This document shows positions 5,188 to 63,939 of a DNA stretch of 64,000 nucleotides, piece by piece. The stretch is from positions 4,065 through 68,064 of the forward strand of contig JAWKSP010000003.1 in NCBI GenBank assembly GCA_041389025.1. The letters run 5' to 3'. Within the stretch, counting starts at the first letter, position 1, and each line of letters starts with the position of its first letter. The stretch comes from Minisyncoccota bacterium. GTDB taxonomy: Bacteria > Patescibacteriota > Minisyncoccia > Phycocordibacterales > UBA918. A program made the position numbers and the translations under genes. The notes beneath the pieces were generated by a model. That model was given only the letters and a program-made list of their open reading frames with translations, made no database searches and was not told the origin of the DNA.

Positions 5188-7929
5188 ATGTCTGAAGGAA
5201 TACCAAAACAATTCACTACTCCGGAGGAGGAGATAGCTTATTTGCGTGAACAAATAGCCAAACGCGAACAAGAGCTTTTAGCCAGAACACCTGAAGTCGA
5301 CCAATCTGATGTAGAAGCAGTTGGAAAACAAGAGATTAGAGAGTACGCTAGTTTTACTCCCAAAATGGTTCTAGAGAAAAATCATCAGCTGAAAGATACT
5401 GCTATTGCTATATCCGCTGAACAAGTCAGTGTCGCGTCTGATCCTGTAGAAGAAATCATGCAAGTTGCGACAGAGAAAGGAATTAAAAATGCTCTAACCG
5501 TTTTAGAAAAAATAGATAATGCTTATTTGGTCGATGAGGTACACCGTCGATTGGTTGAATATATTAAATCAGGAGTAGAGATGCAGGACTTAAAGGAGGG
5601 TACGCCAGCTTGGCATGTTCTTCACATGACTTTGTATGAAGTGACTTTGCCGGAGACAAAGTCAGTTAATGGACGTGAATATCAGTTAGCTGAGCTTATT
5701 GGTATGATGGAGCAGTTGTTTGCTGGCTTGCGAACAATTGGTTCAGAGCAATCACACAATCATTTTGCGATTGAAATTGCGGTGGCTGATAATAGCGACG
5801 ACATTGTTTTTTACGTGGCAATACCAAATAAGTTTGTAACTTTGTTTGAAAAGCAGGTTCTTTCCTTATTTCCGCATGCACAATTAATTCTCCAAGCTCA
5901 CGATTACAATATTTTTGTCGATAATGGTACTACTATTGTGTCTGAGGTTTCTCTTAAAAAACATCCGATTTATCCGGTGAAAACCCACGACAGTTTCGCT
6001 TCTGATCCCTTATCGGTGATTTTAAATGCTTTTTCAAAAATTGAACGAGAAGGTGGTGGAGCAGCGGTGCAAATATTGGTACGCTACCCGCAAAAAGAAT
6101 ACCGTAAAAGCTATGAAGGGGTCATAAAAAATATGCAAAAAGGTATGAAAGCCGGCGATGCCATTTCTCGTAGCTCACTTGGCGGTGAAATAATGGCCTC
6201 ACTGTCTGACTTTGTGTTTAGTAAATCAAACAAAGACGAAAACAAGGAAGTTGACTCAGATAAAATCCAGCTGTTCGGACAAAAAATAAAATCAGATATA
6301 GTGGAGACAAACATCCGTTTGGCGGTATCAGCTAGAGAAATTTCACGAGCAGAAGATATTTTAACCGAAATCGAATCCACTTTTCATCAATTTTCTTTGG
6401 TGGACGGCAACAGTTTTACCTTCAAGCGAGTAAGAGGAGGTTCGTTACGTCAGGCGGAACGACAATTTTCTTTTCGTGAATTTTCCAAGCATATTATCTT
6501 GCCGTTGTCTCTGACAGAGTTGTCTACCGTTATTCATTTACCTGCCAATGGCATCGCTTCTTCACCGCAGTTCAAGCAATCTCATGTAAATACCGCTCCG
6601 GCACCGACCGATATGCCGACCGAAGGTACTCTTCTTGGTATCAACACCCATCGCAATGTAGAGCGAAAAATCTTTATTACCGATGAAGATCGGGTACGAC
6701 ACTTCTATATTATCGGACAGACCGGTACCGGTAAGACATCATTGATGAAAAATATGATTGTGCAGGATATCGAGAGAGGCGATGGGGTGTGTATGATCGA
6801 CCCACACGGCACTGATATCGAGGATGTTTTAAGCGCGGTGCCGAAGGAACGTGAGCAGGATGTGATTTATTTTGATCCGTCACGACTAGATAAGATTGTC
6901 GCCTTAAACATGCTTGAGTATGACACGTCCAAGCCGGAACAAAAAACTTTTGTGGTCAATGAACTTTTTTCCATTTTCCAAAAGCTTTATGGTGGTAATC
7001 CTGAGTCAATGGGCCCAATGTTTGAGCAATATTTTAGAAATGCCACTTTACTAGTAATGGAGGATCCAGATAGTGGTAATACACTGATGGATATATCTCG
7101 GGTGATGGCTGATGCCAAGTACCGCAAAATGAAGTTGTCCAAGGCTACCAATCCGGTGGTGGTGCAATTTTGGAGTGAAATAGCTACCAAAGCCGGTGGT
7201 GAGGCTTCTCTGGAAAATATTGTGCCATATATTGTGTCTAAGTTTGATGTCTTTACCGCCAATGACTACATGCGACCGATTATCGGTCAGCAAAAATCCG
7301 CTTTCAATTTTAGACAAATAATGGACGAACGGAAGATTCTTTTGGTTAATTTATCCAAGGGTCGTTTAGGTGAAATAAATGCCAACCTTATTGGTATGAT
7401 TATTGTCGGAAAGATACTAATGGCGGCTTTGTCCCGGGTAGATGACCAAACTCGTGGCTTCCCACCTTTTTATTTGCATATGGATGAGTTTCAAAACGTA
7501 TCTACCAATTCTATTTCGGCGATTTTGTCTGAGGCTCGAAAATACAAACTCGGCCTTACAATCGCCCATCAATTTATCGCTCAGTTGGAACCGAGTATTA
7601 AAGACGCGGTGTTTGGAAACGTCGGTTCAATGGCTACTTTTCGAGTGGGAGCAGAGGATGCGCAGTTTTTAGAGTCACAATTTTCTCCGGTGTTTGGCGT
7701 AAATGACCTTATTAATATACCTAATTACAATGCGATAGTCAGGATATTAGCAAATGGTACGCCGACCAAGCCTTTTAATTTACGCACCATGCCTCCGGCA
7801 AAACTAGATCCAACCAGAGCAAATGCTCTCATTGACCTCAGTTATAGCCGATATGGACGATCAAGAGAGGAGGTGGAGGCGGAGATATCCGCTAGATATG
7901 CCAAAGAACCACCGGTTGGCTTAACTTGA
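5188..7929 (+). CDS. Large P-loop ATPase with a type IV secretion VirB4/VirD4 (TraC/TraG)-like C-terminal domain
   Basis: Walker A YIIGQTGTGKTSLMKNMI and Walker B-like HMDEFQNV. The C-terminal pattern RKYKLGLTIAHQFIAQL...VFGNVGSMATFRVG matches the T4SS ATPase family. There is no N-terminal TM segment and the N-terminal ~450 aa are unassigned. Confidence 0.55.
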   Translation: MSEGIPKQFTTPEEEIAYLREQIAKREQELLARTPEVDQSDVEAVGKQEIREYASFTPKMVLEKNHQLKDTAIAISAEQVSVASDPVEEIMQVATEKGIKNALTVLEKIDNAYLVDEVHRRLVEYIKSGVEMQDLKEGTPAWHVLHMTLYEVTLPETKSVNGREYQLAELIGMMEQLFAGLRTIGSEQSHNHFAIEIAVADNSDDIVFYVAIPNKFVTLFEKQVLSLFPHAQLILQAHDYNIFVDNGTTIVSEVSLKKHPIYPVKTHDSFASDPLSVILNAFSKIEREGGGAAVQILVRYPQKEYRKSYEGVIKNMQKGMKAGDAISRSSLGGEIMASLSDFVFSKSNKDENKEVDSDKIQLFGQKIKSDIVETNIRLAVSAREISRAEDILTEIESTFHQFSLVDGNSFTFKRVRGGSLRQAERQFSFREFSKHIILPLSLTELSTVIHLPANGIASSPQFKQSHVNTAPAPTDMPTEGTLLGINTHRNVERKIFITDEDRVRHFYIIGQTGTGKTSLMKNMIVQDIERGDGVCMIDPHGTDIEDVLSAVPKEREQDVIYFDPSRLDKIVALNMLEYDTSKPEQKTFVVNELFSIFQKLYGGNPESMGPMFEQYFRNATLLVMEDPDSGNTLMDISRVMADAKYRKMKLSKATNPVVVQFWSEIATKAGGEASLENIVPYIVSKFDVFTANDYMRPIIGQQKSAFNFRQIMDERKILLVNLSKGRLGEINANLIGMIIVGKILMAALSRVDDQTRGFPPFYLHMDEFQNVSTNSISAILSEARKYKLGLTIAHQFIAQLEPSIKDAVFGNVGSMATFRVGAEDAQFLESQFSPVFGVNDLINIPNYNAIVRILANGTPTKPFNLRTMPPAKLDPTRANALIDLSYSRYGRSREEVEAEISARYAKEPPVGLT

Positions 7930-7957: not shown

Positions 7958-10900
7958 ATGAGTATGGAGAAATTTGGAGATAATAAAGGAAATAGATCGG
8001 ATGAAATTGTGAATGCTGAAATTATTTCAGAAGGTAGTGGACCAATTGGTTCTGGTGAGAGAAATGTTGTAAATGAAAATAACAGTCAAGAGAATCCAGA
8101 TAAGACTCAAGAAGCCAGCTCAGAAAAAGAGTCAAGTCTAGAAATCGAAGCGGAGCAACTTGATGATTCGGAGCAAGAGTTTGCTGATGCAGAAGGCAGG
8201 TTTAAAGCAATAAAAGACACTGCTGAGAAACTAAAAAGTGCAGTACCAGAAATATATAGTCATTTAAATTCAGCCGATTCAGCTATCAGTGCTTTTAATA
8301 ATATCAGAGAATCTGATGAAAGAATTAGAAAAAATTATATTTCAAGGTATCTTGGTGTTTTAAACCGAGCTATAAAGTCAATCAATGAATTAATTGATGA
8401 GAATAAAGATAAACTAGAGACGCAAGGTGATCAAGATCAGAAAGAGGAAGAAAAGGTTGGGCGGAATAATGATAGAAAATCAGAAAATAGTAAAGAGAAA
8501 AGTTCTCATCAGAAAGGACTGGTGGAGGCTTATGTTAATAAGTTCAATAAAATTTTTACAAAAAAATTTGGTAATTTAGACACCTTGGATAACACTGACC
8601 GTGGAAATCCAAATGGTCTGCCTGAGTATTTGATTAATGCAATAAAGGCTTTTAAAGCAAAAGAGGCTGAGGTTAAAAAATGGATAGCAAACACTGATTC
8701 TACAACCCAAAATTCAATAGTTGGTGTACAAACTTTACAAAATTTTGTAGCCGAATTAAGGGATTTAAAACATGCTACTCATGAAGCGCATACAAGATAC
8801 ACTAGAGAGAAGCTGGGTCTAGATAATTCAAAAGAGAGTGAAGATCTTGAAGTAAAAAAATCAGAAATTATCTCAGGGTTTAGTTCAGTTGAGTCTAAGT
8901 TTGAAAAAATAGCAGGTAATGCTAAAAGTACAGTTTCAAATGAAGATTTTCAGAAACTTAAGCCCGATGCAAGACGTGTTATTGAAGCGGGTAGAAATGC
9001 TATAAAAGAATTTAATGAATTAGCCAAAACCGAACCGACTGAAGAAAACTTAAATCAGCTAGAAGGAAAAAAGAGAGAGTTAGAATCTGTGATTGCCAGT
9101 TTGGCAAAAAAAGTTGGTGAGATGGAAGGAGTAGAAAAAGATACCGATAAAAAAACAGAAGAAGCTAATGAAGCTGAAAATGAAAAAGGGGATAACGGAA
9201 AAGAAAATAATGAAGATGTAAAATCAAAAAGTGATGATACTCGCACTGAAAATAATGGTGTAGTGGTTGATGTAGAAGAAAAACCAAAAGAAGAAATAAG
9301 TGTTGAGAGTGAAGACGTGGTGGCTGATGAAGAGGTTGTTGAAGGTCTGGAGTTAGATGAGGGTGAAAAAAAAGAAGTTGGAACAAACGAAGAAAAAGAT
9401 AATAAAGAAATTTTTCAAGCTGAAAGAAAGGAATGGTATGAAGCTAGGAAAAAATATTATGAAGATAAAAATGCCTACAATGAAGCGGTAGAGAGTTTTT
9501 ATAAAAATAGAAACTGGTTTGGAAAGGTGGCAGATAGCGCTAAAAGTTTTTTTGGCTTAAAACCAAAATTGCCAGAAGGAATTACTAAACTAGAAAATGA
9601 ATTTAAAAAATCTAGAAGCTCGTACGCTCGTGGTTTGGATTCTGTTTTGAAGAAACGGGCTATAGAAAAAAATACAAATTACGCGGGATTTGACGAAAAG
9701 GACAGTGAAGGTAATTCTACTAAAGCTTCAGACAAGATAAAACAGTTGTTTACGCGTAAGTTTGTTTTGCGTCCAAGTAAAGAAATATTGGATTTACAAA
9801 AAACTGAGATTCTAATTGAAGGACAAGTTGAGGCTGTAGGCAGGGTAATGACTAAGTTGAAAGAAAGTAAATGGTATGTACGAGGTGGAATTATAACTGG
9901 TGCGGCAATATTAGGTACAGCTAGTGGAGGTTTGTTGGCTGGAGGTTTGGCGGCGGCAACGGCTGGTTCTCGTATGGCTATTGGAGTTGGATCTGGTGTA
10001 GCTGCTGGTTGGTTGGCTGATAAAGGAATGAGTTTTAGGGTGAATAAAGCCGAAGCAACAGCTAAGGAGCTTATGGAAGGAAGTAATTTTTCAGTAGCTG
10101 ATATTGATAATTATGAAGAGGAGGTAATGCAAGCCTTACGAAAAGCCAAAGCTGCTCAGAGCCAAAGAACCGCTGCTATAGCAACCGCTGGTTTGGCTGG
10201 TGGTTTGGTTGGTGCCTACAACGCTCCTGATTCTATTGCTGGAGTTACGGATGTGACTGAAAAGGTTTCAGGTGGTTCGGGTGGTGTGGTCGGCGATGTT
10301 GTTTCTGGTGAAGAAATTACAAAAAGTATAAAAGAAGTACTGCACAAAATTGATTTAGGGGAAGATATACCTAATGACACCGCTGGTACCGAAACCGGCA
10401 TGGAGGTGGTTGATGATGCTAAAAAAGTAGTCGAAGAAAGCGTAGAACCGTTGACTAAAGAACCTGTAGAAATAATTAATAAATTAAATGTACCAATTTA
10501 TAACTTAAATGAGGTTGGGCAGTTCTATAACCACTTACATAATATTTCTATTACCGGCGCTGAAGGTTTGGAAGTGGATCAGTTGAGTCAAGTGAAGCAG
10601 TTTATACAACTTAAAGCCAACGACATCTTGTCTGGTGAACCGCACATGACGCCGCAAAAACTCGGTGCAGAATTACAGTCGTTACTGGAGAAGAAGTTTG
10701 GTGAAGAAAGTTGGTGGCAAGAGTCACCGATTGATAAGGTGGATATTGGTAATATAACCAAAGTTGGTTATGATTCTTATGTAGACGTTGACTCTTTAAA
10801 TAAAGATACCGCTCCTATAACCATAGAAACTGAAGTGGGAGAAACTGAAAATATTAGTAGCAATATTTACGAAGTGCAAGCCGGTGATAAGCTTTGGACC

Positions 10901-12537: not shown

Positions 12538-14283
12538 ATGAGCGACAAAAGTTCTTTAACCGTTTTTGATTTTAGTACACAGGCTGGTTTACGATCTGTT
12601 TTGGCAGCCGTTAGACAAAGTGAATTACCAGCTGAAGAGAAAAACCAATTAAAGGATTTAGTTTTACTTTATACTAGTGGTGGAGCTGATGAGTCAGTTC
12701 GTATTACTTTAGAAAAAAAGCTTTCTTTACATCAGTTAAAGCCGGTGGTTAATATTGTAAACAAAGAAAAGGAACAAAAAGTAGAAGAAAAACCAGAACG
12801 AACTCTGTCTTTTGGTAGTTATCGTCCGGTACCGGCCTTTTCTTTGCCGATCATAAAGGACACACCTGTGAAAGAGATCACTACATCTAAAAGAGAAGCA
12901 GAAAAAGATGTGGTTCAACCAAAAGATAATACATCTACAAAATCAGAACCGACTAAATTGGTCTCACAATCACCGGTGGAAGCTGAAAGCAAAGATAAAC
13001 ATAGGATAATTGACGAGGAGGAAGTACCTGAGTCGGTAGAATTAAAAAAAGCGCCGGAAATAAAAGAAAGGACGACTAATGAACTAAAACCAAATATTCT
13101 TACTTCGGTATCAAGATCAGGTTCTCAAGAGGCAGGTGAACCTGTGACTATAAAGGAAGAGCTTAAAATAAAAGAGCCTGTGTCGGTATCATTAGAAAAA
13201 GTTGTTCAGGCTCCACTTGAAACAAATTCTCCAAAGTCTAACCAAAGTCAGTCAATTGATAAATCTGACACAAATTCTAGTTCACCTACTACCACAAAGC
13301 ACTTAAACCGAATTCGTGAAATCAAGTCAATGGTTAATAAGAAGGTTGGCAACCCGGTTAATTTAGTTGATATAAACAACGAAGTTGGTAGAGAGTATAT
13401 GAATGCTTTACTTGAAGCTATGAAGAGCCTTGGTGGTGGACGCTCTGGTGAGTTGGAAAAAGCTATGGAAAGGTTGGAGCAGGCATACTTAGCGGTTGAA
13501 AAAGCTGTTTCTGAAAAGAGTCAACAGGTTTCGAATGATGGTTTTAAAAAAGATTCTGAAGATAAGCTTGGAGCACAATTTCAACCAAAGGAAGTTGATC
13601 AAAGTTTAGAAAATAATTTACCTAAAACTCGGATCGTTGATGAAACCACTATTCCTTATGCTACTGATAATTTAAATAATGAGAAAAACAACAACTCTGA
13701 TGATCGGTGGTTAAATAATAATGAGTCTGAACCAAAAAAATCGGTAGAGCAATCAGTAAAGGTGTCTAAATCAGTGTCTGTGCCAACGTCTGATAAATCA
13801 CAGCCTATTAACACAGAAAATGTACCAAGTCCAAATCAATTTTCGTCGGTTAATTCACCTAGAGTTGCTTCAATTGCTGAGCAAGTAAGAAATCTAACAC
13901 CTGATGACTTACCGAAAACCAAACACACTTCTGCTGAGGCAATGGCAAATCCACTGTATGTACCGGAGGTTGATGACGGATTGGAACAACTTTTGTCTGA
14001 TTGGCCTTTGTTTAAAAAAAGCGGTTTGTTTGGTACTGGGCCAAAAGGTTCAAATCACCCACTTTTTAAGCAAATTTCCGGCTTACAAATACCTATTATT
14101 TTAGCGGGAAGATTTGAAGGTTCAAATCAAGAAATCAGACAAAGTATCACCGACTACATGAATGGTTGGCGTTATGAACAAGGAATTATTTACGATAAGG
14201 GTGAAACTTTTGAAGTTTATCTAAGAAGAGTTATTAAGCATATACTCGATTCACAAAAACAAAAAACTCCAGCTCGTGTATAA
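12538..14283 (+). CDS. Hypothetical protein with a S/K/E-rich low-complexity centre and a conserved-looking C-terminal domain
   Basis: 581-aa ORF. The C-terminal ~110 aa (SGLFGTGPKGSNHPLFKQISGLQIPIILAGRFEG...) are non-repetitive. No match was recognised. Confidence 0.55.
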   Translation: MSDKSSLTVFDFSTQAGLRSVLAAVRQSELPAEEKNQLKDLVLLYTSGGADESVRITLEKKLSLHQLKPVVNIVNKEKEQKVEEKPERTLSFGSYRPVPAFSLPIIKDTPVKEITTSKREAEKDVVQPKDNTSTKSEPTKLVSQSPVEAESKDKHRIIDEEEVPESVELKKAPEIKERTTNELKPNILTSVSRSGSQEAGEPVTIKEELKIKEPVSVSLEKVVQAPLETNSPKSNQSQSIDKSDTNSSSPTTTKHLNRIREIKSMVNKKVGNPVNLVDINNEVGREYMNALLEAMKSLGGGRSGELEKAMERLEQAYLAVEKAVSEKSQQVSNDGFKKDSEDKLGAQFQPKEVDQSLENNLPKTRIVDETTIPYATDNLNNEKNNNSDDRWLNNNESEPKKSVEQSVKVSKSVSVPTSDKSQPINTENVPSPNQFSSVNSPRVASIAEQVRNLTPDDLPKTKHTSAEAMANPLYVPEVDDGLEQLLSDWPLFKKSGLFGTGPKGSNHPLFKQISGLQIPIILAGRFEGSNQEIRQSITDYMNGWRYEQGIIYDKGETFEVYLRRVIKHILDSQKQKTPARV

Positions 14284-55448: not shown

Positions 55449-57631
<2,183 letters not shown>

Positions 57632-57635
<4 letters not shown>

Positions 57636-58496: not shown

Positions 58497-58516
58497 GTAG
58501 TGAAATTCCTTAGTTA

Positions 58517-58559
58517 AACCGATATTGCGTTACTTAGTCACACAATATCGGTTTTTTTT
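58517..58559 (+). terminator. Rho-independent terminator
   Basis: aaccgatattg / caatatcggtt stem followed by T8. Confidence 0.75.
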
Positions 58560-58564
58560 GTTTC

Positions 58565-58632
58565 AATCCTCGCAAAATTGCCTTATTTAGTATAGTATAA
58601 TTTGGTTTTAGACACTTACGTAGTATTTTATA
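58565..58632 (+). repeat. Left copy of a 68-bp imperfect direct repeat carrying promoter-like boxes (TTGCCT...TATAAT)
   Basis: aatcctcgcaaaattgccttatttagtatagtataatttggttttagaca...gtattttata. About 85% identical to 61804-61872. Both copies start right after a terminator T-run. Confidence 0.8.
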
Positions 58633-58659
58633 CAAAAGTTTTATTGATACACCATAATG

Positions 58660-58688
58660 TTGACTTATAAGCAAATATATATTATATT
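58660..58688 (+). promoter_or_regulatory. Sigma70-like promoter (TTGACT, 17-nt spacer, TATATT)
   Basis: Consensus boxes about 85 nt upstream of the 58771 ORF. Confidence 0.45.
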
Positions 58689-58703
58689 CGCGTGAGTAGG
58701 TTA

Positions 58704-58740
58704 AAGCCTTTTTCGAAAGGTTTTGTTATTTTTTGTTTTT
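58704..58740 (+). other. Leader hairpin plus U-rich tract (terminator/attenuator-like) in the 5' UTR of the 58771 gene
   Basis: AAGCCUUU-UUCG-AAAGGUUU (8 bp, one G-U) followed by uguuauuuuuuguuuuuu. It lies between the promoter and the SD. Confidence 0.4.
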
Positions 58741-58770
58741 TGAATTGTAATTACTTATTAGGAGATTGAG

Positions 58771-59391
58771 ATGAGTTCAAAATCATCGCAACAAAAAAAT
58801 GTTAAAGTCAAAATTCTGATTCGTGGAATTTACCCAATACTTATGAATCCAGCTACGGAAGAGCTATTAAACCAACTTCCCGGAGCAGGTATATCGGCGG
58901 GGGCAAAGAAACCGAATAAAGACAGGACTCGTGAAGAGATTGCGGAAAGTCGAGTGATTCGAGATAAGAAGACAAAGAAAGTCGGTATTCCTGTCGAGTA
59001 CATGTATTCTTGTCTTAAGGAGGCGGGTCGTCATGTAATCTTTGAGGGTAAGAAGAAGATTTCTACCGCTGATTCTACTTTATTGTTTTCGTTTATGTCT
59101 ATTGACGAGCAATTTTTTCCGTTTATTGATCAAGATAGCGGTTATGAAATAGATGTTAGACGCGGAGTTAATCGTACCACCAAAGGCGCACAAGCAATCG
59201 TGCGTCCAAGGTTCGATACTTGGGCTTTTTACCTTACTATTGAGGTCGACACCAATGAAATCAATCTGGAAAAAGTCCGTATGGTGTTTGATCAGGCTGG
59301 TAAGAAAATTGGCTTGGCGGATTTTCGCCCTACCTGTAATGGGCCTTTTGGTCGGTTTGTGGTGGAAGAATGGAAAGAGATAAGTGCATAA
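58771..59391 (+). CDS. Hypothetical 206-aa basic protein; weak resemblance to a RAMP/Cas6-like Gly-rich C-terminal loop
   Basis: SD aggag. N-terminal beta-strand-like VKVKILIRGIYPILMNP. C-terminal IGLADFRPTCNGPFGRFVV Gly-rich segment. The Cas6/RAMP resemblance is an unverified guess. No confident homology. Confidence 0.5.
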   Translation: MSSKSSQQKNVKVKILIRGIYPILMNPATEELLNQLPGAGISAGAKKPNKDRTREEIAESRVIRDKKTKKVGIPVEYMYSCLKEAGRHVIFEGKKKISTADSTLLFSFMSIDEQFFPFIDQDSGYEIDVRRGVNRTTKGAQAIVRPRFDTWAFYLTIEVDTNEINLEKVRMVFDQAGKKIGLADFRPTCNGPFGRFVVEEWKEISA

Positions 59392-59468
59392 GGTGCTGTA
59401 CTGTACGGTACTGACCTGTGCGGTACGGTAAAGTAATCTGAAGTACTCTAGTCAACTCTTTTCTAAGG

Positions 59469-59559
59469 AGCTCGGTCCCTGTGAAGTCCAACTTCACAAA
59501 CCGAGCTATGTTCCGAGGATGTGTATCCTCGCTGATGATTCCGAAAGGATGAAAACAGA
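59469..59559 (+). ncRNA. Structured module A: 16-bp bipartite hairpin, AUGUUC linker, 6-bp hairpin (loop UGUGUA), CUGAUGA, 3-bp GAAA-tetraloop hairpin, GAAA
   Basis: AGCUCGGU...UGUGAAGU-CCA-ACUUCACA...ACCGAGCU. Then CGAGGA-UGUGUA-UCCUCG CUGAUGA U-UCC-GAAA-GGA-U GAAA ACAGA. Confidence 0.55.
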
Positions 59560-59636
59560 ATCATATAATGTATAGGCTCTCTCGTGAGGCGTACTGTCTG
59601 GTACTGCTTTGTACCGAATTGTCCCGTGAAGTGCGG

Positions 59637-59724
59637 ATCCGTGTCCCTGTGCTTCTGCATAAACACGGATAGCTCTCAAGGTGTGTACCTTGACTGATGA
59701 TCCTAAAAAGGTGAAAGTAAAAGA
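59637..59724 (+). ncRNA. Structured module B: diverged copy with compensatory changes in both small helices
   Basis: AUCCGUGU...ACACGGAU hairpin, AGCUC linker, UCAAGG-UGUGUA-CCUUGA CUGAUGA U-CCU-AAAA-AGG-U GAAA GUAAAAGA. Both small helices covary relative to module A. Confidence 0.55.
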
Positions 59725-59805
59725 AATTCACACAGTCTCGTATTTTAAGCTTTTGACCTGTTTAGATGCGTGTACAGCCGTGAAGACTAGTATTCTCTTC
59801 TTTGG

Positions 59806-59908
59806 AGTCTGGTCCCTTTAAGTTATATTCATAAAATATAACTTAAAAACCAGACTATGTTCCGAGGATGTGTATCCTCGCTGATGATTCCGAAAGGATG
59901 AAAACAGA
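59806..59908 (+). ncRNA. Structured module C: the 3' 52 nt are identical to module A, while the upstream hairpin has a different, fully compensated sequence
   Basis: AGUCUGGU/ACCAGACU outer stem (A has AGCUCGGU/ACCGAGCU). The inner stem is 12 bp, UUAAGUUAUAUU/AAUAUAACUUAA, unrelated to A's. The AUGUUC...GAAAACAGA core is then identical. Confidence 0.55.
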
Positions 59909-59950
59909 GGTATTTTGAAAATCAAATATTCTCAAAACAGGAGAGAAATT

Positions 59951-61738
59951 ATGAAACATCTTGCTCAATTTTTTCCGTTTGAGCGTTATCCGTCAATGAC
60001 AGATAATCAAGAAGCAGCCTTTAATTTTCTGGATAGTAATCAAAATGGTGGTATTATCGAAGCTCCTACCGGTACTGGTAAGACATCAATCGGTTATACT
60101 TGGCTGTCTTCATTCAAAGGAACTCGTTTCTATTTGGTGCCAAATAAAACTTTGGTACAGCAAGTAGTAGCGATGTTTCCCGATACTAAACCAATGTACG
60201 GACGTAACGAACATTCGTGTCTGTATTACAAGGATCGTGATTTAAGAGCTGATGAGGTGCCTTGTTCGTTATTGCGTAATTGTCCTCATAGGGTACTTGA
60301 AAGTGGTGAAACATATAGTCCTGGTTCAACTCCTTGCCCGTATTTGAAACAAAAGTACGAGGCTGGTTTGGGTGGGGGTATTATAGTTGCTACTTACGCT
60401 TTTTATTTTTACTCTGTTTTTCTGTTAAGACAGTTTACACCGACAGCTGTAGTAGTAGATGAGGCGCATTCGATTGCTAGAAGTATACGAGCAACTCTAG
60501 AATTTCGTATTACTGACCGTAAGCTTGTTTCTATTATTAAAACGCTAAAATCAGTAAAAGCAAAACAGGCTGGATTGATGGAAAAGTTTTTAAGTGAAAT
60601 GAAACTTGTTGTAAAAAAGCGTTCGCCTGGCAAGAGAACCTCAGATTCTATATTGTCGTACGATGAAATTGAACGTCTACTTAAGTGTCTTAACAGCATG
60701 GATATCAAAGAAATACGCAATGACATTAATAATGCTGTTCGTAAGTCTATTATCAGTCCGGTAGATGATTTTGAGATGTTAAAACAGTTAGACGTTATAA
60801 CTCGTGAACTTTATCGATATGTTAAGTCTTTAGGGTTTTCCCTGCCGCCTAAGCAAGAAAAAAGTAAAAAAAGACTTAATCCACTCGCTTTTACTTATGC
60901 CTTTTGGACAAGGAAAAAAGAGGGTGACGGTAGTGTTTGCTGTGAACTTATTGTGAAGGATCATTTTGTAGCTGGTCTTATAAAAGCTATGCTTCCAGCG
61001 AACTGTCTGGCGTGTTCTGCAACTATTGTTGATCCTAAAATGCTTTCATTTGAAACTGGAATTGAGGGTAAGTTTTTATCCTTGGGTTCAGGTTTTGATA
61101 ATGAAAAAACAGCGGTATTAATGCCAACAGATACACCAAATCTGGCGGTTAAAGAGCGGAATAAAAAAGATGTTACTAAGGCAATACGTCTTATGGTTAG
61201 GTCTGCTAAAGATTTAGCTCATGAAAACAAGCGTTCAGTTATTTTAGTTGTGTCTGAACTGGAGAGGCAAAAGGTATTGAAGTTTGCCACAGAAGAAGGT
61301 TTGACAGTAGTGTCTAACAATGAGAAGGAGAGTGCCAGACAAGCAATTTCACGCTTTGTTCAAGGAGAGGGGATGTGTTTGGTAGGTACTGTTGCTAATT
61401 ATGGTCAGGGTATAGATTTACCTGATGGTATGGCACCGGTCATTTTCTATTTTCGTCCAGCCTACCCTAATCCCAATGATCCGCAAACTGTATTTGAAGA
61501 AAATAGATACGGTAACGCGAGATGGGGTATATGGAATTGGCGAGTTATGATCGATCTCTTACAAGTACGAGGAAGAAACGTTCGTTCTGTAAGTGATAAA
61601 GGTGTAACAATACTGGTATCACAACAGTTTAGGCGGTTTGCCCGCACAGCTCTTCCAGAATGGCTTAGACCAGCCTATGTTAACGATAAAAATTTTGCTG
61701 AATGTTTATCTGAGGCAAAAAGAATAATTGATAGTTAG
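59951..61738 (+). CDS. XPD/DinG (Rad3)-family Fe-S cluster DNA helicase
   Basis: Walker A IIEAPTGTGKTS, DEAH-type VVVDEAHS, a four-Cys cluster between them (CLYY...C...C...C) and the helicase C-terminal_2 motifs (VGTVANYGQGIDLPD...GR..R). Confidence 0.75.
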   Translation: MKHLAQFFPFERYPSMTDNQEAAFNFLDSNQNGGIIEAPTGTGKTSIGYTWLSSFKGTRFYLVPNKTLVQQVVAMFPDTKPMYGRNEHSCLYYKDRDLRADEVPCSLLRNCPHRVLESGETYSPGSTPCPYLKQKYEAGLGGGIIVATYAFYFYSVFLLRQFTPTAVVVDEAHSIARSIRATLEFRITDRKLVSIIKTLKSVKAKQAGLMEKFLSEMKLVVKKRSPGKRTSDSILSYDEIERLLKCLNSMDIKEIRNDINNAVRKSIISPVDDFEMLKQLDVITRELYRYVKSLGFSLPPKQEKSKKRLNPLAFTYAFWTRKKEGDGSVCCELIVKDHFVAGLIKAMLPANCLACSATIVDPKMLSFETGIEGKFLSLGSGFDNEKTAVLMPTDTPNLAVKERNKKDVTKAIRLMVRSAKDLAHENKRSVILVVSELERQKVLKFATEEGLTVVSNNEKESARQAISRFVQGEGMCLVGTVANYGQGIDLPDGMAPVIFYFRPAYPNPNDPQTVFEENRYGNARWGIWNWRVMIDLLQVRGRNVRSVSDKGVTILVSQQFRRFARTALPEWLRPAYVNDKNFAECLSEAKRIIDS

Positions 61739-61767
61739 TTGTAAAATTTAAGATAACTTTATCTTGA

Positions 61768-61802
61768 ATGGCAAGGAGTTTTTAACTCCTTGCCATTTTT
61801 TA
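61768..61802 (+). terminator. Rho-independent terminator after the helicase gene
   Basis: atggcaaggagtt-ttt-aactccttgccat followed by T6. Confidence 0.8.
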
Positions 61803-61803
61803 T

Positions 61804-61872
61804 AATCCTCGCAAAATTACTTTATTTAGTATAGTATAATTTGGTTTTAAACAACCTAAGTGGTATTTTATA
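61804..61872 (+). repeat. Right copy of the 68-bp direct repeat, abutting the alaS start codon
   Basis: aatcctcgcaaaattactttatttagtatagtataatttggttttaaaca...gtattttata. The alaS ATG is 10 nt downstream. Confidence 0.8.
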
Positions 61873-61881
61873 TTTGAAATT

Positions 61882-63828
61882 ATGAGTGGGAACGAAATCA
61901 GACAAAAATATTTGGAATTTATGGAGAAAAATGGTCACGCGGTCATACCGTCGGCTGCTTTGGTGCCCGAGAATGACCCAACTACGCTGTTTACCGGTAG
62001 TGGGATGCAGCCTTTGATTCCGTATTTGCAGGGTGAGGCGCACCCCAACGGGGTGCGCCTCACGGACTCTCAAAAATGTTTCCGCGCCAATGATATCGAA
62101 GAAGTGGGAGACAACCGTCACACTACTTTTTTTGAAATGCTTGGTAACTGGTCTTTGGGTGATTATTTTAAAAAAGAACAGTTGCGGTGGTTTTTTACCT
62201 ACCTAGTAGACGAGGTTGGACTTGATCCAGAGCGTATCTACGTCACTGTGTTTGCGGGAGACGAGAGTCTGGGTATTCCGGCTGATGAAGAATCGGTGGC
62301 TATTTGGCAAAAATTATTTAAAGAAAAGGGAATTGAAGCCAAAGCGGTGCATGTTGGGAGTGAAGAAGCAGGTTATGAGCTTGGTATGCAAGGTGGGCGT
62401 ATTTTCTACTATGACGCTGGTAAAAACTGGTGGAGTCGTTCTGGTACACCAGATAAGATGCCGGTAGGAGAGATTGGGGGTCCTGACAGTGAGGTTTTTT
62501 ATGATTTTGGTCCAGAATATGCCACTCATCCTGATTATAAGGATAAAGCGCCACATCCAAACAGTGACTCAGGACAGTTTGTGGAAATCGGCAACTCGGT
62601 CTTCATGGAGTATGTGAAGCAGGAAGATGGTAGTTTTACTAAGTTACCACAGCGTAATGTTGATTTTGGTGGCGGCTTAGAGCGTATTGCGGCGGCTAAA
62701 AATAACGACCCAGATATATTTAAGATAGATTTGCTGTGGAATGTGGTAGAAAAAATAGAAAATTTATCTAAGCGTACATACAAAGATAACTTAGTGGCTT
62801 TTCGAGTAATTACTGATCATATTCGGGGAGCAGTTTTTTTGATTGCCGATGGTGTCTTGCCCAGCAATACTGATCAAGGTTATTTTGTACGTCGTCTTTT
62901 ACGTCGCTCAGTCCGTTTTGCCGATCAGTTAGCGGTGCCGGCGGGGAAGTTTGCTGAGTTGGCAGCTGGAGTAATTGATACTTATGGTGAACATTATCCA
63001 GCCCTTAAGACTAAGGAAAAGGAGATTGAGTCAGTAATTGCTAAAGAAGAAGAGCAATTTAGAAGTACTTTAGAAAGTGGTCTGAAGCAGTTTAATAAAA
63101 TTTCCTTACAGGTACACGTGACTTCCAAGGAGGTTGATGGGAAGAAGGTGATCGATAAAAGTGTAGCACCAGTGGCAAAAAAAGCGATTAGTGCACAAAA
63201 TGCTTTTGATCTATACACTACTTATGGTTTTCCGATTGAACTCACCGAGGAGATTGCGACAGAGAAAGGCTTGGTGGTGGATCGAGTTGGTTTTGAAAAA
63301 TTGATGTTAGAACATAGAGATAAATCACGCGTTGGAGCCGAACAGAAATTTAAAGGAGGCTTGGCTGATCATTCAGAAAAGGTAGTGCAGTATCATACGG
63401 TTACTCACTTGCTGTTAGCTGGTCTCCGCAAGGAACTTGGTGATCATGTGCATCAAGCCGGCTCAAATATCACTGGTGAGCGCTTACGCTTTGATTTTAC
63501 GCACCCTGATAAGGTTCCTCGTGAGGTTTTGGATAAGGTAGAGGAGTATGTTAACAATGCCATTAAAATTGGTGGGGAAGTAACAATTGAAATGTTACCA
63601 AAGGAGGTGGCACAAGCCGATAAGACTATCGAAGCTAGTTTTTGGGAGCGATATCCGGATGAAGTTAAAGTTTATACTATCAAAGGAGCTGATAATACAG
63701 TGTTTTCTAAGGAGTTATGTGGCGGACCACACGTGAAAAGATTGGCAGAAATTTCTGGAAATTTTAGGATAACAAAAGAAGAATCTTCCTCGGCTGGAGT
63801 GAGAAGAGTTAAGGCGGTTTTGGAGTGA
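61882..63828 (+). CDS. alaS: Alanyl-tRNA synthetase (catalytic, tRNA-recognition and editing domains; no C-Ala domain)
   Basis: Class II catalytic core, editing-domain HxxxH (HTVTHLL) and CGGPHV zinc motifs. It ends at 648 aa. Confidence 0.9.
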   Translation: MSGNEIRQKYLEFMEKNGHAVIPSAALVPENDPTTLFTGSGMQPLIPYLQGEAHPNGVRLTDSQKCFRANDIEEVGDNRHTTFFEMLGNWSLGDYFKKEQLRWFFTYLVDEVGLDPERIYVTVFAGDESLGIPADEESVAIWQKLFKEKGIEAKAVHVGSEEAGYELGMQGGRIFYYDAGKNWWSRSGTPDKMPVGEIGGPDSEVFYDFGPEYATHPDYKDKAPHPNSDSGQFVEIGNSVFMEYVKQEDGSFTKLPQRNVDFGGGLERIAAAKNNDPDIFKIDLLWNVVEKIENLSKRTYKDNLVAFRVITDHIRGAVFLIADGVLPSNTDQGYFVRRLLRRSVRFADQLAVPAGKFAELAAGVIDTYGEHYPALKTKEKEIESVIAKEEEQFRSTLESGLKQFNKISLQVHVTSKEVDGKKVIDKSVAPVAKKAISAQNAFDLYTTYGFPIELTEEIATEKGLVVDRVGFEKLMLEHRDKSRVGAEQKFKGGLADHSEKVVQYHTVTHLLLAGLRKELGDHVHQAGSNITGERLRFDFTHPDKVPREVLDKVEEYVNNAIKIGGEVTIEMLPKEVAQADKTIEASFWERYPDEVKVYTIKGADNTVFSKELCGGPHVKRLAEISGNFRITKEESSSAGVRRVKAVLE

Positions 63829-63833
63829 TGGAT

Positions 63834-63898
63834 AGTGGGTGGATAGTATAAAATGGCCGCGGGCTTTGCCCGCGGCCATTTTATACTATCCACCCACT
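63834..63898. terminator. 31-bp perfect inverted repeat with a GC-rich core (bidirectional terminator-like), 3' of alaS
   Basis: agtgggtggatagtataaaatggccgcgggc-ttt-gcccgcggccattttatactatccacccact. Confidence 0.6.
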
Positions 63899-63939
63899 AA
63901 ATTTATTAAAATTCTAAATTTTAGTATAATAAAGCCACT

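Follow-up and report, generated by a model that had tools for sequence, protein, structure and literature searches.

What kind of system occupies the 3.24-kb unit in front of alaS in an uncultured bacterium of Candidatus Paceibacterota, and how did two direct repeats of about 70 nt come to bracket it? The unit (hereafter the cassette) lies in a 64-kb stretch of DNA (hereafter the window) from a metagenome-assembled genome of the Candidate Phyla Radiation (CPR), contig JAWKSP010000003.1 of assembly GCA_041389025.1, and is chromosomal, standing among housekeeping genes. A preliminary description of this DNA had listed a promoter, a leader hairpin, an open reading frame (ORF) of 206 amino acids (aa), structured RNAs, a helicase gene and a terminator between the repeats, all of which are present, and had suspected an accessory RNA-guided module. 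As read from its sequence, the cassette encodes a Viral Interference Programmable Repeat (VIPR) system composed of a Cas7-like protein, three guide RNAs separated by predicted hammerhead ribozymes, and an XPD-like helicase, with a putative RNA-guided function that answers to the earlier suspicion through a Vipr profile match and the guides (vrRNAs). We put at roughly 85% the probability that the cassette is a helicase-associated VIPR that was acquired horizontally, has copies of its insertion site of about 70 nt at its borders and most likely recombined in by means of a target copy that it carried.

VIPR is a family of RNA-guided DNA-binding systems first described in 2026 (bioRxiv 10.64898/2026.04.26.720920; 10.64898/2026.04.26.720927). 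According to these preprints, Vipr, an ancestral small RAMP with one RRM, a G-loop and a thumb, forms polymers along guide RNA built from GGY/NN pentamers, and the complex binds double-stranded DNA via the NN bases, with every third target base skipped; this gapped RNA code for DNA recognition is proposed to be older than CRISPR. The text of the former preprint describes vrRNA arrays interspersed with hammerhead ribozymes in types I and V, confirmed by small RNA sequencing in other loci, and enzymatic accessory genes, nucleases or helicases, in types III-V, of which only III and V are nuclease types. Its detection threshold is at least 4 pentamer units (9-16 being typical), related consensus sequences such as YNNNG are included, and its cut-off for natural targets is an NN match of at least 80% under a 1-nt-skip rule (bioRxiv 10.64898/2026.04.26.720920). 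The family is already published, and the window locus adds a member to it, not a new category.

The Vipr protein

The cassette has the content of a minimal VIPR locus, with only the following two ORFs between the repeats and no adaptation genes:
58771..59391, plus strand: vipr, encoding the 206-aa Vipr RAMP (Cas7-like) with the G-loop GLADFRPTCNGPFGRF, matched in PDB, PHROG and structure searches
59951..61738, plus strand: vap, encoding the accessory helicase (595 aa, XPD/Rad3/DinG, SF2), with ATG at 59951, Walker A, DEAH and four cysteines

The 206-aa protein is a Vipr RAMP, homologous to the Vipr of Escherichia phage SUSP1. The single sequence matched the SUSP1 Vipr protein in PDB (36pp chain D) with E=3e-4, and a profile of 37 homologues matched the same chain with E=2.5e-14 (profile residues 7-196, chain residues 2-192). 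The protein also matched the phage family phrog_4652 (2.7e-18). Its AlphaFold (AF2) model (pLDDT 88) has the RAMP fold, and the top Foldseek matches of the model were, at E about 5e-7, the backbone subunits Csm3 and type VII Cas7. Pfam, NCBIfam and PADLOC gave no usable match for this protein, and the search in cultured phages gave a single marginal one, in a Vibrio phage (E=1e-3). The preliminary description had drawn a comparison with Cas6-like proteins; the protein itself is a Cas7-like RAMP, and it is not the well-known housekeeping protein that would have spoken against an accessory module.

The residues that contact G2 and Y3 in SUSP1 Vipr align to invariant residues of the family (R138 to R145, D177 to D184 and R179 to R186), and F185, between D184 and R186 of the G-loop, is the counterpart of W178 and nearly invariant in the homologues (at least 90%). 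H17, the SUSP1 contact to G1, aligns to the nearly invariant N26, and this change fits the relaxed first position that the pentamers of the window appear to have.

Guide RNAs, tail hairpins and hammerhead-like units

About 560 nt between vipr and the helicase gene are non-coding, and the structured RNA modules occupy 59392-59910. They form three units of one design, in which 14-17 pentamers are followed by a hairpin with a CCCUG...CAAA loop, a 7-bp hairpin and the motif CUGAUGA-N12-GAAA:
59392..59476, plus strand: vrRNA1 guide tract, 17 xGY-NN pentamers directly after the vipr stop codon, G in phase in 11/17 (shuffle p about 1e-3)
59470..59506, plus strand: vrRNA1 tail hairpin, stem GCUCGGU/CCGAGC around CCCUG...CAAA, model R1 match, stem covariation in relatives
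59507..59560, plus strand: hammerhead-like unit 1, type III topology, core CUGAUGA...GAAA, predicted cleavage after C59513
59575..59644, plus strand: vrRNA2 guide tract, 14 pentamers, G in phase in 13/14 (shuffle p<5e-5)
59637..59670, plus strand: vrRNA2 tail hairpin, model R1 match
59671..59722, plus strand: hammerhead-like unit 2, predicted cleavage after C59675, stems I and II differing from those of units 1 and 3 by compensatory changes
59734..59813, plus strand: vrRNA3 guide tract, 16 pentamers, G in phase in 10/16 (shuffle p about 1e-3)
59807..59855, plus strand: vrRNA3 tail hairpin with a long inner hairpin, model R1 match
59856..59909, plus strand: hammerhead-like unit 3, sharing 95% identity with unit 1 over 62 nt, predicted cleavage after C59862

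In the pentamer register base 2 is G, base 3 is mostly T and the last two bases are variable. The xGY-NN tracts fit the repeats of related consensus that the preprint text includes. The preliminary description had seen no array; an array is present, with pentamer-repeat guides between hammerhead-like units instead of CRISPR repeats, and neither a CRISPR array nor an Rfam CRISPR repeat was detected in the window. Tandem Repeats Finder misses the pentamer tracts, which are too degenerate for it. Enrichment of G with period 5 was seen elsewhere in the window (e.g., at 13396 and 21661) and was rejected as G-rich coding sequence without the GY pattern.

For the tails and the hammerhead-like units, we built a covariance model (R1) from an alignment of 18 tail-plus-ribozyme units, taken from the related loci L008 and L010-L012 only, with the window left out. 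In this alignment 18 of the 22 predicted pairs have compensatory changes, those of the 8-bp tail stem among them. The model gave exactly three matches in the window, at 59444-59562 (E=8e-30), 59612-59724 (E=1.5e-25) and 59781-59911 (E=1.6e-26), in which base pairing is perfect in the tail and in stems I and II, and it also matches units in at least eight further helicase-type loci.

The three units have the type III hammerhead core, namely C3-A9 (CUGAUGA), G12-A14, the A15.1-U16.1 pair and C17, with stems I and II closed and stem III open. Stem I (7 bp) and stem II (3 bp plus U/U) fold as predicted, and C17 is preceded by U in all three. The motif CUGAUGA-N12-GAAA occurs three times in the window, against 0.08 occurrences expected by chance. 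In the four loci from which R1 was built, whose Vipr is 62-78% identical over the full protein, Rfam hammerhead models match 17 units (16 with Hammerhead_3, one with HH9); homologous units of L010-L012 score 36-47.8 bits on Hammerhead_3, just under the threshold of 48.5. We regard the window units as type III hammerhead-like, with predicted cleavage. Cleavage after C59862 would separate the array from the helicase mRNA.

Guide arrays vary among related loci. In L011 (1180-1288) and L012 (1303-1411), which are close relatives, a hammerhead stands right after the vipr stop codon with no guide before it, and arrays flank vipr on both sides, with up to 9 units in 2 kb. Hammerhead-free guide arrays were seen in other helicase-type loci, L004 (6700-7300 and 9240-9560), L102 (1180-1250 and 5100-5330) and L093 (200-330 and 3260-3510), where each vrRNA apparently has its own TTGACA-like promoter and terminator hairpin and arrays are also found downstream of the helicase gene. 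In the window, the variable dinucleotides of vrRNA1 (59392-59440) are of low complexity (GC AC AC AC CC GC AC AA AA); taken as codons with the skipped base as wobble, they read A-T-T-T-P-A-T-(K/N)-(K/N).

The XPD-like helicase

The protein encoded by vap is, by its sequence features, an XPD/Rad3/DinG helicase with a predicted four-cysteine iron-sulfur (Fe-S) domain in the first motor domain. Its Pfam matches are Helicase_C_2 (3.9e-15), ResIII and DEAD, and four homologues share an invariant Walker A (APTGxGKT), VDEAH, and C90, C105, C111 and C129 at the position of the Fe-S domain. Among solved proteins, archaeal XPD comes closest (E about 1e-19), and E. coli DinG is a much more distant match.

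The helicase is a regular, conserved partner of the window's Vipr clade. Among distinct loci with enough sequence and a Vipr at least 40% identical to that of the window, it adjoins vipr in about 25 of 26. Where Vipr is less than 40% identical, including 75 IMG/VR viral contigs, the helicase was found in locus L137 only, with a weak partial match in L165.

The pairing of a DinG-type helicase with one RAMP could also be read as a minimal or degenerate type IV-A-like CRISPR-Cas module whose repeat RNAs are processed differently. The PADLOC profile PDLC01439 (typeIV_DinG, CAS-IV-A associated) matches the helicase over its full length (6e-41), and the small protein has a Cas7-like fold; a second profile, PDLC01729 (Csf4_0_IVA), matches weakly (1.7e-5). 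On the defining features this reading is already contradicted: there is no CRISPR array in the window and no second RAMP or other cas ORF in the cassette, and the RAMP matches Vipr by sequence. Four cysteines of Fe-S type are retained in the helicase, whose nearest match is archaeal XPD, with no CasDinG chain at E<=1 in the PDB search, whereas CasDinG has merely a vestigial FeS domain (PMC10450177). By tblastn, the helicase had no match in the 72,556 plasmids of PLSDB or in the INPHARED phages. Type IV-A systems are mostly found on plasmids. We therefore consider a type IV-A-like module very unlikely; the comparison with type IV-A made in the preliminary description holds as an analogy and fails as membership, on the CRISPR array and on the single RAMP that matches Vipr. 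We infer that the accessory helicase of this VIPR is XPD-like and may work like CasDinG without necessarily being one.

Insertion in front of alaS

The repeats and the signals of the cassette are as follows:
58557..58632, plus strand: left direct repeat, duplicating the alaS promoter region and placed 3' of the terminator hairpin of the upstream 157-aa gene, with blocks conserved in relatives
58660..58688, plus strand: the cassette's own promoter-like site, TTGACT-17-TATATT, with 10/12 consensus positions and a function predicted from this match
58704..58745, plus strand: leader hairpin with a U-rich tract, terminator-like, within the vipr 5' leader and 3' of the cassette's promoter-like site
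61766..61798, plus strand: intrinsic terminator of the cassette, 15-bp stem and T-run
61796..61872, plus strand: right direct repeat (alaS promoter copy); 9 nt lie between its end and the alaS start codon, ATG at 61882

Positions 58557-58614 and 61796-61853 are 90% identical over 58 nt, and the similarity goes on at 72% to 58632 and 61872 with a 1-nt offset, in agreement with the repeats of 68/69 nt and about 85% identity reported earlier. The two copies share an identical core of 29 nt with diverged arms on either side. The 20-mer TTTAGTATAGTATAATTTGG is present in the window at both repeats only (0.03 chance matches expected), as are exact matches of the 15-mer AATCCTCGCAAAATT. A hairpin with a T-run precedes each copy (58516-58554 on the left, 61766-61798 on the right). 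TATAAT had been taken as the -10 box; relatives conserve the alaS promoter blocks CTCGC(C/A)A and an extended -10, TG(G/C)TATAGT, so that TATAGT is more likely the functional -10.

We found neither vipr nor the helicase gene upstream of alaS in any of 63 AlaS relatives (GTDB species genomes). In the closest relative (85% AlaS identity) a homologue of the upstream 157-aa gene is retained, and alaS is immediately preceded by a single promoter of the same type (blocks AAACCTCGCAAAAT and GGTATAGTATAG). This is the empty site that the preliminary description had proposed to look for, and it supports, together with the 63 relatives that lack the cassette, the earlier view of an insertion that duplicated the alaS promoter region; a repeat-free arrangement of the same three genes was not seen in the relatives. 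In other CPR genomes the Vipr-helicase pair is found at unrelated chromosomal sites. Since the relatives lack the cassette and the pair recurs at unrelated sites elsewhere, the cassette is taken as an acquired unit and the right repeat as the resident alaS promoter.

The same observations bear on the idea that the locus is a housekeeping DNA-repair operon, ancestral to the lineage, in which an XPD/DinG helicase acts with an uncharacterised partner. The helicase does belong to the XPD/Rad3/DinG repair family, and the neighbours, the ATP synthase operon and alaS, are housekeeping genes. Such an operon is scarcely credible and already contradicted, given that the pair is absent at the alaS site in 63/63 relatives, is found at unrelated sites in other genomes and has as its partner a Vipr RAMP with guide arrays.

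Repeat-flanked cassettes in other loci and the route of entry

In three further loci (L002, L085 and L093), the cassettes are flanked by copies of local host sequence of 55-130 nt. The repeat of L002 (63-90 nt) comprises the promoter and the first nine codons of the downstream NUDIX gene, and that of L093 comprises the last 17 codons and the terminator of the upstream class II aminoacyl-tRNA synthetase gene, as two blocks, 98% and 97% identical, with unrelated spacers between them. The repeat of L085 consists of the last 18 codons of the upstream gene, with five synonymous substitutions and a single Ile-to-Val replacement in the extra copy. This synonymous pattern is that of purifying selection elsewhere and not of the decay of a fresh local duplicate, which suggests that the extra copy was imported from another lineage. 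Other loci (L004, L007 and several more) have no flanking repeats, and no motif shared by the cassette ends of the four repeat-flanked loci was seen by eye. The flanking repeats of L102 were rejected as insertion-site copies; they consist of vrRNA tail, terminator and promoter units. In L002 (Moranbacteria), two NUDIX genes (5201-5644 and 9760-10224) stand on either side of the cassette, and the duplication at the left border is limited to the promoter and first codons of the downstream gene.

The flanking repeats could instead have arisen in place, by duplication of the target site or promoter, or could be att sites of a recombinase encoded elsewhere, and not a carried arm. Both copies stand exactly at the cassette borders, the 29-nt identical core with diverged arms is att-like, and the cassette holds no recombinase. 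The other loci argue against it: in L085 nearly all differences between the extra copy and the resident gene end are synonymous, and in L093 the two conserved blocks are split by unrelated spacers, patterns expected of a copy from an orthologous site of another lineage and not of a duplication freshly made in place. Each locus has its own insertion site, which speaks against a single site-specific att. We hold in-place duplication or att sites to be possible, if rather unlikely. The L085 pattern and, in the window, the 29-nt core with diverged arms favour entry via recombination at a site copy that the cassette brought along. No recombinase, integrase or transposase ORF was found between the window repeats; a single crossover of Campbell type and an att-like reaction with the enzyme supplied in trans are both conceivable routes, neither of them established.

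With low confidence, we suggest a broader picture in which the helicase-type VIPR cassettes of CPR bacteria are recombinase-free mobile units that carry a site copy of 55-130 nt and are planted next to housekeeping genes, whose promoters or terminators they borrow. In a bolder form, the Vipr-vrRNA complex or the helicase would itself take part in the insertion, and separately the clade might bridge VIPR and type IV CRISPR.

As to the signals inside the cassette, the stretch from the vipr stop codon to 61766 yielded no call of a terminator-like site. The leader hairpin at 58704-58745 could be an attenuator or a leftover terminator; the vipr of L002 is likewise preceded by a similar hairpin and T-run (about 5815-5850). 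Outside the cassette, immediately 3' of the alaS stop codon, a long near-perfect palindrome (GGATAGTGGGTGGATAGTATAAAATGGCCGCGGGC / GCCCGCGGCCATTTTATACTATCCACCCACT) at 63826-63900 is presumably a strong bidirectional terminator.

Proposed working and target search

We propose that vipr, the three vrRNAs and the helicase gene would be read as one transcript from the duplicated alaS-type promoter, from the cassette's own promoter, or from both. The three type III hammerhead-like units would cut after C59513, C59675 and C59862 and so free the guides from each other and from the helicase mRNA. One Vipr protomer would bind each pentamer, with the conserved G and pyrimidine buried and the two variable bases displayed, and the tail hairpin may cap the 3' end of the guide. 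The Vipr filament would then bind double-stranded DNA that matches the NN dinucleotides, with every third base skipped, and the XPD-like Fe-S helicase might unwind or clear the bound target, much as CasDinG is needed in type IV-A CRISPR. The net effect would be the silencing or disabling of a phage or another mobile element. Transcription and hammerhead cutting in this scheme rest on sequence and comparisons, and the remaining steps are drawn from published VIPR work.

Several points weigh against a helicase-associated VIPR. The role of the helicase is purely an extrapolation, and the exact published type cannot be read from the preprint text, from which we take the cassette as probably type IV, since types III-V carry nucleases or helicases and III and V are the only nuclease types. 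The xGY-NN consensus of the window is looser than the published GGY/NN. On the side of vipr, vrRNA1 lacks a ribozyme, and its 5' end must therefore form in another way. The hammerhead-like units have U/U at 10.1/11.1, a weak A/U-rich stem III of 3-5 bp and the cleavage triplets UUC or CUC, and their lowest-energy fold does not form stem III. Rfam gave no hammerhead or other family at E<=1 in the cassette or the whole window, and the units do not reach the gathering threshold of RF00008 (48.5 bits). On account of the U/U, the weak stem III, the lowest-energy fold and the missing Rfam match, self-cleavage of the window units is unproven, and the ribozyme call, Rfam reporting none in the window, rests on the core motif, covariation and related loci.

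The searches turned up no target for the guides. No match rose above background in the window under rules that skip 0-3 nt, the perfect scores being the guides themselves. Four IMG/VR scans with exact skip-rule patterns of nine pentamers (18 bases) gave 1, 5, 0 and 0 contigs, none of which extends; the vrRNA1 matches fall in low-complexity, Thr/Pro-rich coding sequence, without extension beyond the searched pentamers. A mismatch-tolerant scan of 236 fetched loci (2.3 Mb) gave nothing above the control skip rules. The large collections were searched with exact patterns only, so these results are weak negative evidence.

The same points can be taken as signs of a real VIPR cassette that is decaying or inactive, with degenerate ribozymes, drifted guides and no current target. 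Besides the U/U, the weak stem III, the missing Rfam match and the empty target searches, several pentamers have no G (e.g., TCTxx), and the nearby housekeeping gene atpD is frameshifted, which makes sequence quality or decay a concern. Yet both cassette ORFs are intact, with good ribosome-binding sites and all family-invariant residues kept, U/U variants of stem II recur in L008, L011 and L012, TCT-type pentamers close to the tail recur in related loci, and the tail and stems I and II pair perfectly. We assign decay only a small chance. The split in atpD (ATP synthase beta subunit, 56274-57635) is as follows: the frame ends at 57287 (GIYQLSTY-stop), a conserved internal segment is read in a different frame, and from 57375 onwards the original frame is restored, a pattern of two compensating frameshifts that suggests an assembly error or a pseudogene.

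Significance

Read as a helicase-associated VIPR, the locus is a complete example with predicted ribozyme processing in a streamlined Paceibacterota chromosome, with clean ends and an empty site in a relative. The preprint text does not mention flanking host-sequence copies, does not name DinG, XPD, Fe-S cysteines or type IV, and does not state that the helicase type has ribozyme arrays. Beyond that text, the partner helicase is XPD-like with four invariant cysteines and also matches the type IV-A DinG profile, so that VIPR and CRISPR each offer a case of a RAMP filament paired with a DinG-family helicase. Also beyond it, the relaxed first pentamer position goes together with loss of the G1-reading His of SUSP1 Vipr, and imported-looking copies of host sequence flank cassettes at four unrelated sites, providing a handle on the spread of the module. 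The cassette is a compact 3.2-kb construct that yields concrete, testable hypotheses.

Comparison with known systems

The VIPR type II exemplar, that of Escherichia phage SUSP1, shares with the window cassette a single small RAMP, guides built as tandem pentamers (G and Y positions conserved, two bases variable), a conserved structured 3' tail, one accessory gene, and the lack of a CRISPR array and adaptation genes. It differs in that SUSP1 is a phage, whereas the window cassette lies in a CPR chromosome among housekeeping genes. The window consensus is xGY-NN, with the first G relaxed and Asn as the H17 equivalent; its tail is a hairpin with the CCCUG...CAAA loop, compared to a pseudoknot in SUSP1; its guides are separated by hammerhead-like units, and its accessory protein is an Fe-S helicase instead of a DNA-binding protein. 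The identity of the two Vipr proteins is about 20-25%, as estimated by eye from the profile alignment and not computed, and a strong match requires a profile. By the preprint text, the hammerhead-array variants of VIPR (types I and V) resemble the window locus in the ribozyme-vrRNA array, and the types with enzymatic accessories (III-V) in the helicase accessory gene.

Type III hammerheads (RF00008), which include tandem arrays in phage-related DNA, share with the window units the core, A15.1-U16.1, C17 and the stem topology. The window units differ in U/U at 10.1/11.1, UUC/CUC triplets, a short stem III and scores below the Rfam report threshold, and they are array spacers whose predicted cleavage would define the ends of the guide RNAs.

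Compared to att-flanked integrative elements and Campbell-type insertions, the cassettes have similar direct repeats of host sequence (55-130 nt) at both borders, with an identical core and diverged arms, and the carried copy of L085 resembles the sequence of an orthologue. Unlike att-flanked elements, they have no integrase or transposase inside the repeats and their sites vary between genomes; the mechanism is not established.

Type IV-A CRISPR-Cas, with its Csf complex and CasDinG, likewise pairs a RAMP filament on a guide RNA with a 5'-3' helicase of the DinG/XPD family, and it acts largely by transcriptional interference. In contrast, the window cassette has no CRISPR array, Cas5, Cas6 or Csf1 and one RAMP only, its helicase keeps the Fe-S cysteines and is nearer to XPD, and its guide code is gapped. 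VIPR, too, is reported to act by transcriptional interference.

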